A DNA stretch of 64,000 nucleotides. It comes from Candidatus Moraniibacteriota bacterium (GTDB taxonomy: Bacteria > Patescibacteriota > Minisyncoccia > Moranbacterales > GCA-2747515). The DNA is taken from NCBI GenBank assembly GCA_038208115.1, contig JBBQZC010000001.1, positions 13,977 through 77,976 of the forward strand, read 5' to 3'. A program made the position numbers and the translations under genes. Each line of letters opens with the position of its first letter. The first letter of the stretch is position 1. Below the pieces are notes generated by a model that did no database searches, was not told the origin of the DNA, and worked only from the letters and a program-made list of their open reading frames with translations. Of the stretch, positions 1,403-34,702 are shown piece by piece.

Positions 1403-1595
1403 CAAAAAACCGACCAAACTAAAAAGCCAAAAAAGCTTTTTGTTCTAAGTCGGTTTCGCCACTCAACTCCCCGTACGCTCACAAGCGACCAAGAATACTT
1501 ACCATAAAATCATCACTCCGCACGGATCAATGTCCCTTAAATGTTCAATTTTCTATTGTTTTAAAAATTATACCAGGTAATTATCAAATCAACAA
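1403..1595 (-). ncRNA. Structured leader RNA, copy A (promoter + conserved core + intrinsic terminator), 5' of the GT2 synthase gene
   Basis: Minus strand: TTGTTG-17-TATAAT promoter (plus 1590-1595 and 1567-1572). Conserved core UUAAGGGACAUUGAUCCGUGCGG...GAGCGUACGGGGAGU...AAACCG. Hairpin plus U-tract at plus 1403-1450. Paralogous to the copies at 15.7, 17.6 and 21.9 kb. Confidence 0.5.
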
Positions 1596-8530: not shown

Positions 8531-9919
8531 TTATTTGATTACTTTTAATTTCTCAAGTGCCATGAGGACGTGAATAGAAAAAACATCAAGAAATTCCAAT
8601 TCTTGTGACGCAATACTGTTATTTCCCTCAAACCCAAGAAATAGAAAACCTTTACATGAATTGTCTGCAATAAATGGAACTACTACAAAATAACTCAAAT
8701 TTCCATTTATATTAAAGTGGGCAATATCATAATATTCACATGAGGAACTTATTGTTCTTTGTTCTTTAATCATTTTTTTGATGAATGCAATTTTTTGCGA
8801 ATCCACTCTTCCAAAAACATTCATTTTTGTCTTATGATATCCCTCTCCAAATACCAAACTAAACAGACCCTTGCTATCATATTTATATATTAAAGCCACA
8901 TTTGCTTGCGAAGAAGTCATGGCAACATTTGTGATATGTGCAAAAAGTTCTTTTTTGTTTTTTTTATAATTTGAGTGCTTATCTATTTCCAATAATGCTG
9001 CAATTTTTCTATTGGAATAACCTACTTGCTCGTAAGCATCGATGAGATTATCTCTAATTTTTTGTTGCAACTCACTTTGAACTACGTGATATTCCTCTTG
9101 ACTTTTTTTTAGATCATAAAACAGTAAGCGATATGGATCCATAAGTCCGATTTCTAAAATGGCCTTATAAATCAAAAGAAATGAAATGTATTTTAGAAAA
9201 TGTCCAAGCATATTCTGGAAATCATAAACATTAATATATCCAGTGAAAATTAACTCTGAAATTACTTTAACGATGAGAGCGAGAGAAAGAAGATTATATA
9301 CTGAAGAATCAAATAATACTTTCTTTTTATAGAGCAATGCGATAGAAACAACAAAAATACCAACAATTACATATTCACTAACTACTTTGAAACGAGTAAG
9401 TCCAGCTGTTTCGGTGTACATATTTGGAAATACATGCCAATAAAATATAGATAGCAACATCAATATTACAATTATCATGTACGTCAGAAATATATAATTT
9501 GCATTGAGTAGAATCCTCCATTGATCTTGAACAGATTTTTTTCTTAAAATAATAAACGCTCCAATAAATGAAAATGCCTCAAGATAGCGTGCACTGATCC
9601 AGAGTTGTGTAGGAAGATTGGTCGTGTGATCCATAAATATATTCATTCCCTTATAACTCAAAACATGTAGCAAATCTAAGCCACCGACAAAAAAATAACC
9701 AATTCCCAGAATAAGCAGATAGTAGTTGCTCACAAAACTTTTTGACGACCATGCGACAGCAAATATGCCGAAAGATATGACTACGGTGAAAAGTTCGATG
9801 AGAGAATGAAATAATAAATAACTATGCAAACTGGTCAATTGTAATACGAAACAGCTCACAATAATCCCTAGTGGGAAAACAAGTTTTCTTATTGCTTTTT
9901 TGTCTGCATTCATATGCAA
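8531..9919 (-). CDS. Membrane sensor protein: multi-TM (MASE-like) N-terminal domain + cytoplasmic GAF-like domain, no obvious output domain
   Basis: About 8 predicted TM helices in residues 1-260, then a GAF-like region (FSLVFGEGYHK...YFVVVPFIADNSCKGFLFLGFEGNN). There is no kinase, GGDEF or HTH. Confidence 0.5.
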   Translation of the reverse strand: MHMNADKKAIRKLVFPLGIIVSCFVLQLTSLHSYLLFHSLIELFTVVISFGIFAVAWSSKSFVSNYYLLILGIGYFFVGGLDLLHVLSYKGMNIFMDHTTNLPTQLWISARYLEAFSFIGAFIILRKKSVQDQWRILLNANYIFLTYMIIVILMLLSIFYWHVFPNMYTETAGLTRFKVVSEYVIVGIFVVSIALLYKKKVLFDSSVYNLLSLALIVKVISELIFTGYINVYDFQNMLGHFLKYISFLLIYKAILEIGLMDPYRLLFYDLKKSQEEYHVVQSELQQKIRDNLIDAYEQVGYSNRKIAALLEIDKHSNYKKNKKELFAHITNVAMTSSQANVALIYKYDSKGLFSLVFGEGYHKTKMNVFGRVDSQKIAFIKKMIKEQRTISSSCEYYDIAHFNINGNLSYFVVVPFIADNSCKGFLFLGFEGNNSIASQELEFLDVFSIHVLMALEKLKVIK

Positions 9920-15439: not shown

Positions 15440-15619
15440 ATTTTTTTATCTTTTTTCTTTTGTTGAAGTGAAAAAGTGTGAAGAAATAATTTATTAATTA
15501 ATTAATTTTCGCCACCACACATCGCATTGCGATCATTTGGTGAATATTTCGGACATTTTAGGTAGTCCGACACCTTCGACCTTTTGTGACTCATGCTTTC
15601 ACATTTTTTCTACTAAATT

Positions 15620-15926
15620 AAAAAGCCAATGGAATCTCACCAGTTCAACTGATGAGATAACATTGGCTTTTTAATACAAATGTTAATTTTGTTATGGTAC
15701 ATTCACCCGTAATTAATTTAATAAACATAAAAACCGACTTAAACCAAGAGAGTAAAAACTCTCTGACTCTAAGCCGGTTTTGCTATTTGACTCCCCACAC
15801 GCTCATTAGCAACCAATAGTTTCTGAACTTCATGAAACTCTTGCGTATGGATCAATGTCTCTTAAATAATTTTAAAATCACTCTGTTTTAAAATTTTATC
15901 ATAGGTTGTTAATTCATACAAATCAA
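15620..15926 (-). ncRNA. Structured leader RNA, copy B (promoter, conserved core, terminator hairpin 1, second strong hairpin), 5' of a TasA-like gene
   Basis: Minus strand: TTGATT-17-TATGAT (plus 15921-15926 and 15898-15903). Core UUAAGAGACAUUGAUCCAUACGC...UUGGUUGCUAAUGAGCGUGUGGGGAGUCAAAUAGCAAAACCGG. Hairpin plus U-run at plus 15720-15775. Second hairpin with flanking A and U tracts at plus 15620-15672. Confidence 0.55.
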
Positions 15927-16156
15927 GTTATGCACATGTTATGCACTTTTCTCATTTTCTTTTTTTTCGTTTCTCAAATACGCCCGCATTTTCGCTAAAA
16001 AAAATGATGTAATATACATCATTATTTTATCTCATATTATTTTTGCTAATATATATTCACATTTTGTGTGAAAGTACGATTTATATAAAAATCAATCCCT
16101 TCTGGAATTGACACGACGTGATATTTTATTCTTCTAGAGTAAACTGATATATATAC

Positions 16157-17482: not shown

Positions 17483-17791
17483 AAAAGACCATGGCATCCC
17501 ACCAGTTAAAAACTGGTGGGATAGCATTGGCTTTTTAATGCAAATGTTAATTTTTTATGATACATTCACCCACATTTTTAATATTATAAAAATAAAAACC
17601 GACCTAAACCGAGAGAATATATGTTCTCTGGTTCTAAGCCGGTTTTGCTATTTGACTCCCCACACGCTCATTAGCAACCAATAGTTTCTGAACTTCATGA
17701 AACTCTTGCGTATGGATCGATGTCTCTTAAGTAATTTTAAAAAAACTTTGTTTCTTAATTATATCATAGCTTATTTATTCATACAAATCTA
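17483..17791 (-). ncRNA. Structured leader RNA, copy C (near-identical to copy B), 5' of the hydrolase gene
   Basis: Minus strand: TAGATT-17-TATGAT (plus 17786-17791 and 17763-17768). The same core as B with 3 substitutions. Terminator hairpin at plus 17594-17650. Second hairpin at plus 17483-17537, with the stem covarying relative to B (CCCACCAG/CUGGUGGG versus CUCAUCAG/CUGGUGAG). Confidence 0.55.
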
Positions 17792-18002
17792 GTTATTCAC
17801 ATGTTATGCACTTTTTTCATTTTCTTTTTTTTGTTTTCTCAAATACACTCGCATTTTCGCTAAAAAAACGATTACGATCACAGCAGGCCACCACCACAGA
17901 CCCTCATTTCCATATTGTGACCACAACCAAAGAGATGCGGAAATCGCAAGTATTGGCACCGCCCACATACGCACATTTCTTTTGATTTTTTCCATTTGTA
18001 CT

Positions 18003-21584: not shown

Positions 21585-21791
21585 GCGTGTTTCACCTTCC
21601 TTTCTAGCTTAATCTGTTGAATAGACTTAAATTGATCCAACAGATTTGATATTACCAGCTGAGAGTTTCATGAACGCTTCAGCTGATCTTGACTTTTTAT
21701 GTGTCTACAAATTAAGTGCGGATGCACCAATCGTGATTTGTACATTCGTACGCAATTCACCCGTTTGCCTTTTGGGACAGGCAATTTGTAG

Positions 21792-22102
21792 AAAAAAAGC
21801 CAATTGCATCACACCAACCGACGTTGATAGTATGCAATTGACTTACAAAATTCAATTTGTATCTAGAAATAGACATTTCACCCGTACTTAATTTTTACGA
21901 AATAAAAAAACCGACTTATATCAAAAAACTCCTGTTTTTTGAATTAAGCCGGTTTTGCCATTTGACTCCCCACATGCTCGTTAGCAACCAATAAAGTTTC
22001 TCATCTCTTTAGAAACCCATGCATGTAGATCAACATCTCTTAAATATATTCGATTTTAAATTCAACTTTATTGAAGTATACCATTTTCAAAAAATCGCAC
22101 AA
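21792..22102 (-). ncRNA. Structured leader RNA, copy D, 5' of the small secreted repeat protein gene
   Basis: Minus strand: TTGTGC-16-TATACT (plus 22097-22102 and 22075-22080). Core UUAAGAGAUGUUGAUCUACAUGC...UUGGUUGCUAACGAGCAUGUGGGGAGUCAAAUGGCAAAACCGG. Terminator hairpin at plus 21904-21960. Second hairpin plus U-tract at plus 21792-21845. Confidence 0.5.
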
Positions 22103-29304: not shown

Positions 29305-29491
29305 CGATTTATTGTTAATTTTTACAGATATTCATTTAACAACAGTATACCATAAAAATCGTGAAATATGCGTAATTTGATGTCCTTGTTTTCTTTCGCG
29401 TATACGCATCTCTAATTTATTATTTTGCGAGAAAACACAAAATTCCCCGCAAAGTGAGCCATTTCTGACTCCATACTCATTCCTGGATATG

Positions 29492-29537
29492 ACTGTTCAA
29501 GGTAGCCCTCACGAGGAGATTTTTACCTTGAACAGTT
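29492..29537. repeat. Perfect 13-bp inverted repeat (hairpin) at the island boundary
   Basis: ACTGTTCAAGGTA-n20-TACCTTGAACAGT between the AIPR-like gene stop and the CARDB gene start. Confidence 0.5.
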
Positions 29538-29695
29538 TTGCAAACCACGCACCAATACGGCGGTTGGGCTTGTGCTTAAGTAACATATTCAGTTATCACC
29601 TACACTTTATCATTCATCTTAACTATGTCTAATTAAGGAGCTTTTTTTTATTTTTTAACATAATTAAATTAGTTTTTCCTAAATTTTGCCATATT

Positions 29696-33212: not shown

Positions 33213-34702
<1,490 letters not shown>

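Follow-up and report, generated by a model that had tools for sequence, protein, structure and literature searches.

A probable variant of the c-di-GMP-II riboswitch clan in the leaders of polysaccharide synthase, fibre and surface-protein genes of a Candidatus Moraniibacteriota genome

The leader of a processive family-2 glycosyltransferase (GT2) gene was analyzed in a 64,000-nucleotide (nt) stretch of DNA from a Candidatus Moraniibacteriota bacterium (assembly GCA_038208115.1, contig JBBQZC010000001.1, positions 13,977 to 77,976; hereafter the window). This leader holds copy A of a structured RNA that occurs four times in the window and resembles the class II riboswitch for cyclic di-guanosine monophosphate (c-di-GMP). 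The element is probably an unannotated variant of the c-di-GMP-II clan (Rfam CL00127) that acts as a transcriptional ON switch and forms a subclass outside Rfam, so far in Patescibacteria-like sequences only. It probably switches on the polysaccharide synthase, its sister copies switching on cell-surface fibre and adhesin genes. The evidence was observed or computed and comprises the repeat family, homology of fold, covariation, an overlap of aptamer and terminator, and gene contexts. The window has a GC content of 37% and its protein neighbours are from Patescibacteria (candidate phyla radiation, CPR), bacteria that for the most part have not been cultivated, whose cells live attached to a host or surface, and in which very few regulators are recognized.

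Copies and homologues of the leader RNA

A repeat search of the window found four co-oriented copies of the element, at 1446-1494 (copy A), 15770-15818 (copy B), 17635-17683 (copy C) and 21945-21993 (copy D), which align over ~190 nt, promoter-like stretch included. A covariance model (R1), built from a MAFFT alignment of 20 distinct sequences, reported exactly these four copies in the 64-kb window and no others, copy A with the lowest score (A, 88.5 bits, E ~1e-18; B, 110.3 bits; C, 106 bits; D, 95.7 bits). Repeats, alignment and covariance model agree with the first-pass annotation, made from the sequence alone, which had described a four-copy leader RNA family with copy A at 1403-1595. On the minus strand, the functional strand of copy A, positions 1595-1404 hold a putative promoter, the structured RNA and an intrinsic terminator, and the interval first given is exactly this promoter-to-terminator span: 1595 is the first base of the -35-like TTGTTG, and 1404 is the final U of the terminator tail. 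The features of copy A (all on the minus strand) and of its sister copies are as follows.

1590-1595: -35-like hexamer TTGTTG of the putative leader promoter, 17 nt upstream of the -10 (sequence reading)
1567-1575: putative extended -10, TGgTATAAT (-10 hexamer 1572-1567; sequence reading)
1444-1541: aptamer-like domain with c-di-GMP-II-like fold, ~100 nt, from the 5' to the 3' strand of helix P1 (cmscan against RF01786; own covariance model)
1536-1541: P1 5' strand UUUAAG, 6 base pairs (bp), pairing with 1444-1449 (CUUAGA; 90.8% of cells paired, 20 sequences)
1535: unpaired G between P1 and P2a (A in 19/20 relatives and in the Rfam consensus, position 12)
1527-1534: P2a GAC (1534-1532), kink-turn (k-turn) bulge AUU (1531-1529) and GA (1528-1527), with partners GGA (1470-1468) and GUU (1467-1465)
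1519-1525: P2b 5' strand CCGUGCG, pairing with 1471-1477 (covariation, RNAalifold)
1492-1518: variable P2-loop insertion, 21-30 nt in the family (cmscan: 36-42 nt against a consensus of 12-18)
1484-1491: pseudoknot 5' strand UGG-UCGCU (UCGCU pairs with GGCGA 1460-1456; UGG complements CCG 1453-1451)
1450-1463: conserved 3' core A-G-U-G-GCG-AAA-CCG-A, equivalent to canonical A61...A74 (cmscan alignment)
1455-1454: A-A dinucleotide, equivalents of A69/A70 (cmscan alignment)
1404-1456: intrinsic terminator with U6 tail, whose 5' arm AAACCGACUUAG consists of the binding core and the 3' strand of P1 (fold, -21.3 kcal/mol)
1174-1403: AT-rich spacer, 230 nt, free of the second hairpin module and extra motifs of copies B-D (terminator and motif scans)
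1-1173: processive GT2 gene, first 391 of 470 codons, cut by the window edge (domain search, identical protein P0001)
15729-15874, minus strand: copy B (aptamer 15763-15874, terminator 15729-15780; Rfam alignment, R1, terminator fold)
17594-17739, minus strand: copy C (89% identity to copy B over 291 nt; R1)
21904-22052, minus strand: copy D (Rfam alignment, R1, terminator fold)

The promoter-like stretch of copy A aligns with those of copies B-D, the equivalent in copy B being listed by a promoter scan as TTGATT-17-TATGAT, and ~25 nt of leader lie between the copy A -10 and the structured domain. Assignment of copy A to the 3' untranslated region of the upstream gene was rejected; that Band-7 gene (2439-1672) has its own terminator (1639-1616), so the element is a separate unit. 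A conserved AUUGAAUAUUU box stands immediately 5' of P1 in most homologues (e.g. L008, L023, L024, L028; L numbers designate loci) and reads AAUUGAACAU in copy A (1550-1541, minus strand). The c-di-GMP-II model does not explain this box, which may be part of the promoter and transcription start or an extension of P1.

Homologues were sought with a pattern taken from the conserved 3' core, applied in the same way to species genomes and metagenome contigs. Among 185,579 species genomes there was one true match, in a Candidatus Moraniibacteriota metagenome-assembled genome (MAG; L002), together with one false positive in coding sequence. Metagenome contigs gave ~20 true matches, 15 of them distinct and full-length; ~10 of the 30 matches were coding sequence, mostly one repeated conserved coding stretch, and were discarded by eye. 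No true copy was found in the viral contigs searched. The covariance-model search of homologues covered the retained loci only; there R1 also picked up two weaker, divergent copies, L011 and L028 (25-29 bits). All homologues apparently come from Patescibacteria.

L011:2244-2354, minus strand, and L028:10160-10272, plus strand: divergent clan members (best match the c-di-GMP-II-GAG family, RF03169, 30.7 bits, reported for L011 against a threshold of 40)

In both divergent members the pseudoknot strand lies before the loop hairpin and not after it, no extra nucleotide follows P2a, and Rfam position 12 is C. They sit upstream of small secreted proteins resembling that of the gene after copy D.

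Copies B and C stem from a recent duplication of 291 nt, promoters included (15713-16003 and 17578-17868; 89% identity), and stand before unrelated genes. The organism is also represented by a public assembly (L041, Logan SRR19962012, a 29.7-kb contig found via protein P0121) that ends exactly within copy B, probably because of the B/C repeat.

Resemblance to the c-di-GMP-II riboswitch

When 21 kb of the window (1300-22300) were scanned against Rfam by E-value, copies A, B and D were the top matches, all to c-di-GMP-II (RF01786) over 84 of the 84 model positions, with E-values of 0.005-0.036 (0.0004 for copy A in a 241-nt local scan). Other RNA families were rejected: at E up to 10 only c-di-GMP-II rose above noise, and the small nucleolar RNA and microRNA matches were hairpin noise. 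The first-pass annotation had mentioned possible c-di-GMP control and had named no RNA family; on sequence evidence, the resemblance to a c-di-GMP-II riboswitch over its full length supports this possibility.

The RNAs share with the known c-di-GMP-II riboswitches (PDB 3Q3Z of Clostridium acetobutylicum; Cdi-2-1 to Cdi-2-4 of C. difficile) helix P1, an unpaired purine, P2a, the k-turn, P2b and a pseudoknot between loop and 3' strand, as well as the A..U...AACCG core and the loop UGG; predicted ON logic and downstream adhesin or matrix genes are also common to both. The c-di-GMP-I (GEMM-I) riboswitch has the same presumed ligand and type of regulon but an unrelated fold, and no Rfam similarity to it was found.

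For covariation, the Rfam architecture was transferred to the 20-sequence MAFFT alignment and the pseudoknot added, with slid 3' partners as the control. Across the 20 sequences 93.6% of cells were paired, against 28-47% in the slid controls. P2b changed on both sides at 8 of 8 pairs and was recovered by RNAalifold unaided. The pseudoknot UYGCU/RGCRA was paired in 99% of cells, and one of its pairs (alignment columns 76/109) switched between U-A (13 sequences) and C-G (7 sequences) with no mismatch, copy A having the C-G version (C1487-G1457). The UGG/CCG pairing is invariant and hence uninformative for covariation. A k-turn signature, GAC-AUU-GA ... GGA-GUY, with a 3-nt bulge and GA opposite GGA, was read from sequence, its geometry being predicted; GA and GGA were invariant in 20/20. 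The k-turn GA/GGA and the loop UGG lie outside the search pattern, so their invariance was not imposed by it. A conserved hairpin in the P2-loop insertion was rejected as a general feature, since no more than about half of the sequences form one there.

Overlap of aptamer and terminator

Each of the 19 distinct sequences examined has a terminator, a hairpin with a U-run behind it, whose first base is the first A of AAACCG; 17 of these terminators were predicted by folding (-20 to -34 kcal/mol), and those of L023 and L024 were read by eye, their segments having been cut at an internal U-run. The terminator 5' arm uses up the A69-G73 equivalents and the P1 3' strand, and in the minimum-energy fold of the whole copy A leader the terminator is present and P1 excluded. 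Aptamer and terminator are mutually exclusive, so ligand should block termination; the model predicts a transcriptional ON switch. All four C. difficile class II riboswitches are ON switches and precede adhesin and pilin genes (PMC6200980).

In the mechanism that we infer, whose conditional parts are the promoter, which ligand is bound, in which direction it regulates and whether the 230-nt spacer couples the leader to the gene, a sigma-70-type promoter (1595-1567) would start the leader transcript, which would fold into P1, P2a, the k-turn and P2b. A pseudoknot would join the P2 loop (UGG-UYGCU) to the 3' strand (RGCRA-AA-CCG), and the 3' strand AAACCGRC with the P1 3' strand would double as the 5' arm of the strong terminator. 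When ligand is absent the terminator would form and transcription stop at ~1404; ligand, most probably c-di-GMP, would lock the pseudoknot and P1, prevent the terminator and allow read-through into the GT2 gene. The sister copies would act alike on TasA-like/SipW fibre operons and surface proteins, so that high c-di-GMP would turn on a matrix and adhesion programme.

The first-pass annotation had also held that copy A lacks the second hairpin module of the other copies, and this was borne out: 1403-1174 (minus strand) contains no terminator-like hairpin, the only other one on this strand being 1639-1616 of the Band-7 gene, and copies B, C and D each have a further hairpin with a U-run. The module, located between riboswitch terminator and gene and shared by different organisms, consists of a conserved (UAC)GGGUGA box and, 40-80 nt further on, another strong hairpin with a U-run; it may be a second regulated terminator.

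~15647-15720 (copy B), 17511-17590 (copy C) and 21799-21880 (copy D), minus strand: second hairpin module (also in L008, L017, L020, L029, L011 and L022)
~15647-15700 (copy B), ~17511-17560 (copy C) and 21799-21822 (copy D), minus strand: the second hairpins themselves

A second conserved RNA motif, an H-type pseudoknot of ~40 nt whose 5' AAAGGUCGA does not vary, stands 60-150 nt ahead of TasA-like (SipW-type) genes. Over 8 sequences its cells were paired to 92% (24-47% when slid), and 7 of 10 pairs were changed on both sides. It has no Rfam similarity and is absent from the copy A leader.

~15553-15600 of the window, minus strand: AAAGGUCGA pseudoknot in the leader of copy B
L011:6344-6391, L023:100-147 and L024:681-728, minus strand: AAAGGUCGA pseudoknot
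L018:3625-3672, L022:485-532, L028:6863-6910 and L015:1470-1517: AAAGGUCGA pseudoknot

Tandem direct TACGAAT(N) repeats, e.g. ctacgaattacgaattcatacgaatatacgaatg, occur just after the first terminator in L008, L028, L029 and L011 and at 21745-21760 (minus strand) in the window; they look like sites of a DNA-binding regulator or an internal promoter region.

Downstream genes

The GT2 gene downstream of copy A starts at the ATG at 1173, 230 nt past the U-tail that ends at 1404, in agreement with the ~230 nt first given for this QRVRW-motif gene. An identical protein in the database, P0001 (470 aa, beginning MDVRKTKS), confirmed this start; it has no PilZ domain. The protein has the motif KQRVRWKKS, hydrophobic N- and C-terminal segments, and matches to Glycos_transf_2 (E 9e-32), Chitin_synth_2, PgaC_IcaA (143 bits) and NodC (104 bits), the last two scores being far below the equivalog cut-offs. 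By sequence it is of the processive PgaC/IcaA/NodC/chitin-synthase-like type. Its closest named homologues are MAG proteins of Moranbacteria, Moraniibacteriota and other Patescibacteria. At the orthologous loci L033, L035, L036 and L038 the GT2 gene is followed by one or two polysaccharide deacetylase genes, a gene for a PMT_2 membrane protein intervening in L038; L033 has in addition a heparinase II/III-like fusion after the GT2 gene, and a GH18/CBM5_12 gene and a second GT2 gene upstream. The window ends short of the equivalent genes. Judged by these annotated domains, the neighbours suggest a partly deacetylated N-acetylglucosamine polymer like poly-N-acetylglucosamine (PNAG) or chitin.

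Copy B precedes an operon (15439-10133) that encodes two proteins with SipW-dependent signal peptides (TIGR04088), a 357-aa protein, a SipW-type signal peptidase and a further small protein. Copy C precedes a 193-aa Ser_hydrolase-like gene, and copy D genes for a 176-aa secreted protein and an 887-aa DUF11-repeat protein.

11423-10683, minus strand: SipW-type signal peptidase (TIGR02228, 114 bits)

Elsewhere, six locus groups have the RNA before secreted proteins, most of them >1,000 to >1,600 aa where the contig allows; those that were scanned have Ig-like, LTD, TSP3 or beta-helix domains. Five more have it before TasA-like genes, four of the five with a SipW-type peptidase in the operon, and the second copy in L011 precedes small secreted proteins. 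In L023, from a second organism, the RNA stands 54 nt before a different processive GT2 gene (QRSRW motif; 23% local identity to the window GT2), which is followed by PMT_2 and GH5 genes. The RNA has been recruited to two unrelated processive GT2 genes, which points to a link that is functional rather than inherited.

In ~20 loci the RNA is always co-oriented with genes and directly upstream of them. None of the window copies and ~16 homologues is intragenic or stands in front of a housekeeping gene; the first-pass annotation had named such placements as evidence against a regulon. Its proposal that an exopolymer synthase shares an RNA-defined regulon with TasA-like and secreted repeat proteins is supported by the sister copies and the ~16 homologues, which precede genes of such classes. 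The arrangement is like the Bacillus subtilis matrix regulon (tapA-sipW-tasA and eps), where a SipW-type peptidase, SipW-dependent proteins and exopolysaccharide glycosyltransferases are also under shared control; the B. subtilis operons share the protein repressors SinR and AbrB, whereas the shared element in this window is RNA.

Contrary evidence and alternative readings

Several results weigh against a c-di-GMP-II-type ON switch and are collected here with the readings that they would favour. The Rfam scores are low: nothing was reported at copies A-D at gathering thresholds, the bit scores on RF01786 (A, 27.7; B, 28.9; D, 30.7) are about half of the threshold of 53.5, cmscan did not report copy C at all, and none of the 17 homologue loci scanned reached any Rfam threshold. 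In the main set, P1 has one-sided changes only, and P2a, which is 100% paired, has wobble-type or one-sided changes only. These two helices covary only with the two divergent members added in a model-fitted alignment, where two P1 pairs are double-changed; as judged from the alignments, they rest mainly on homology. RNAalifold favours a small, non-covarying hairpin at the 3' end that competes with the proposed fold. Compared with the canonical class, P2a is followed by an additional nucleotide and the loop carries an insertion of 21-30 nt; the pseudoknot is UYGCU/RGCRA as against GCAC/GUGC, P1 is short and AU-rich (6 bp as against up to 11), and the host belongs to Patescibacteria. The metagenome search pattern fixed the 3' core, so part of the invariance seen there was imposed.

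The position of the element at the GT2 gene is not general. With filters off, the RNA was absent from four orthologous GT2 loci (L033/34, L035, L036/37 and L038/39). It was likewise absent, filters off, from three orthologous TasA-like loci (L042, the complete Moraniibacteriota genome CP064975.1; L043/44; L045), and no known Rfam family replaces it at the orthologous GT2 and TasA-like loci. The class therefore has a patchy distribution, and its association with this GT2 gene is lineage-specific. The regulon first proposed is supported with two qualifications: its GT2 member is particular to a lineage, and copy C precedes a serine-hydrolase-like gene.

The ligand itself can be questioned. The ligand-contact mapping rests on the contact list of a review, which gives A13, A14, U37, G39, U60, A61, C68, A69, A70, C71, C72, G73 and A74 for structure 3Q3Z (PMC7288161); in c-di-GMP-II riboswitches the ligand is described as joining a triplex built on the pseudoknot (PMC7583470). 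The 3' strands compare as follows.

Canonical class: A G U g G U G C A A C C G g C
GAG variant: A g U G G C G A G A C C G a C
Patescibacteria class: A R U R G C R A A A C C G R C

By alignment the equivalents of A61, A69, A70, C71, C72, G73 and R74 are retained, the UGG...AAACCG core is invariant in 20 sequences, and the retained loop UGG would correspond to U37/G39. Position 68 is A in place of C and its pseudoknot partner U in place of G, a U-A pair in 20/20. Positions 67-69 are GCA in the canonical class, GAG in the GAG variant and, to judge by its name, GCG in the GCG variant; here they are RAA, a combination not in Rfam (GAA in copy A and 7 others, AAA in copies B, C and D and 10 others).

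With the same fold and terminator logic, the element might sense another ligand, e.g. 3'3'-cyclic GMP-AMP (3'3'-cGAMP), c-di-AMP or pGpG, as a specificity variant of the kind suspected for the GAG and GCG variants. The RAA replacement falls exactly where both curated variant families are defined, the pocket-side pair is U-A and not G-C, and the divergent members match RF03169 best. The GAG variant also has a U-A pair at position 68 and nearly the same pseudoknot strands (CGGuCGCC ... UGGCGA, here UGGUCGCU ... UGGCGA). Its defining GAG is absent from these RNAs, in which position 69 is A and not G, and scores on RF03169 stay below its threshold, those of the main set, window copies included, being lower than on RF01786. 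We know of no established ligand for the GAG variant. Against a changed ligand, A69/A70, where the change common to both named variants lies, are kept together with C71, C72, G73, A61 and the loop UGG; the C68-to-A change is compensated in its partner, as for a neutral pseudoknot pair; and the gene contexts are classical c-di-GMP outputs (PMC6200980). The pattern of the core favours retained c-di-GMP binding, as far as alignment can indicate and without proof. That the RAA subclass is a specificity variant, joining a GAG-type U-A pair to canonical A69/A70 and binding a ligand other than c-di-GMP, is held to be unlikely, and the same low probability is given to another ligand in general. If another ligand were bound, that signal would determine when ultra-small episymbionts bring fibres, giant adhesins and exopolysaccharide into use, acting in many loci with two further leader modules, the GGGUGA box with its second terminator and the AAAGGUCGA pseudoknot.

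A further result counts against the c-di-GMP-II-type reading and for another ligand: tblastn with consensus sequences found no GGDEF, EAL, PilZ or DAC domain in the window and ~300 kb of loci. A MASE3 membrane protein (8531-9919, minus strand, 462 aa, MASE3 E 6e-82) is encoded directly after the TasA/SipW operon; it was rejected as a diguanylate cyclase, having no GGDEF motif, and its C-terminal ~200 aa, GAF-like by eye, had no Pfam or PDB sequence match. Patescibacteria MAGs are reported to encode diguanylate cyclases, which are enriched in attached populations (PMC9938205). Among the papers searched, none joins CPR, c-di-GMP and a riboswitch.

Copy A itself departs from its family. G1535 is unique to it among the 20 sequences, and the A that it replaces is likely, by position in the alignment, to be one of the A13/A14 contacts. 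The family might function while copy A is decaying or retuned, with binding impaired by G1535 and the weak loop insertion, so that the GT2 leader would terminate mostly constitutively or respond with much lower sensitivity; copy A scores lowest in the window, its loop insertion folds at only -1.3 kcal/mol, and GT2 orthologues elsewhere do without the RNA. Its helices, k-turn, pseudoknot (with a compensatory C-G pair of its own) and terminator overlap are intact, which argues for continued selection, and in C. difficile riboswitches within one class remain functional although their thresholds differ (PMC6200980). Decay or retuning of copy A is judged improbable.

Finally, the ~155-nt terminated transcript might act in trans or as a decoy, or the leader might be a protein-dependent attenuator, the GT2 gene being driven from a promoter in the spacer. 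The element has its own promoter-like sequence and a strong terminator, the spacers are long in many loci (230-350 nt), and copies B, C and D carry further conserved modules past the terminator. The copy A spacer has a weak promoter-like site at 1315-1287, and a second promoter within these 230 nt could, from its sequence, uncouple the gene from the switch; the count of promoter-like sites around copy A is no higher than in shuffled sequence. Some spacers measure only 54-99 nt (L023, L012, L002 and L007), in ~20 loci of different organisms the element always lies immediately before genes of a single functional class and in their orientation, and the conserved overlap of core and terminator is a hallmark of switches that act in cis. 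This reading is judged quite improbable, and a cis-acting c-di-GMP-II-type switch is preferred.

Other features of the window

Two further RNA features were recorded.

33214-34702, minus strand: full-length 16S rRNA gene (no 23S, 5S or tRNA gene within the 64 kb; the rRNA genes are unlinked)
29456-29570, minus strand: LOOT RNA (RF03000; 64.2 bits, above the gathering score), the only other non-rRNA Rfam match in the window

Implications

If the c-di-GMP-II-type reading is correct, c-di-GMP-II-type sensing would be extended to Patescibacteria, and Rfam thresholds would be shown to miss a coherent subclass. The combination A68/A69 would join canonical CA, variant CG and variant AG as a fourth, useful for analysis of pocket specificity. 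There would be a mechanistic reason for a GT2 synthase to belong to the same regulon as matrix proteins. The RNA sits before TasA-like/SipW fibre operons, Ig-like proteins of >1,500 aa and PNAG/chitin-type synthases, and a riboswitch in multiple copies would give a testable handle on how Patescibacteria decide to attach.

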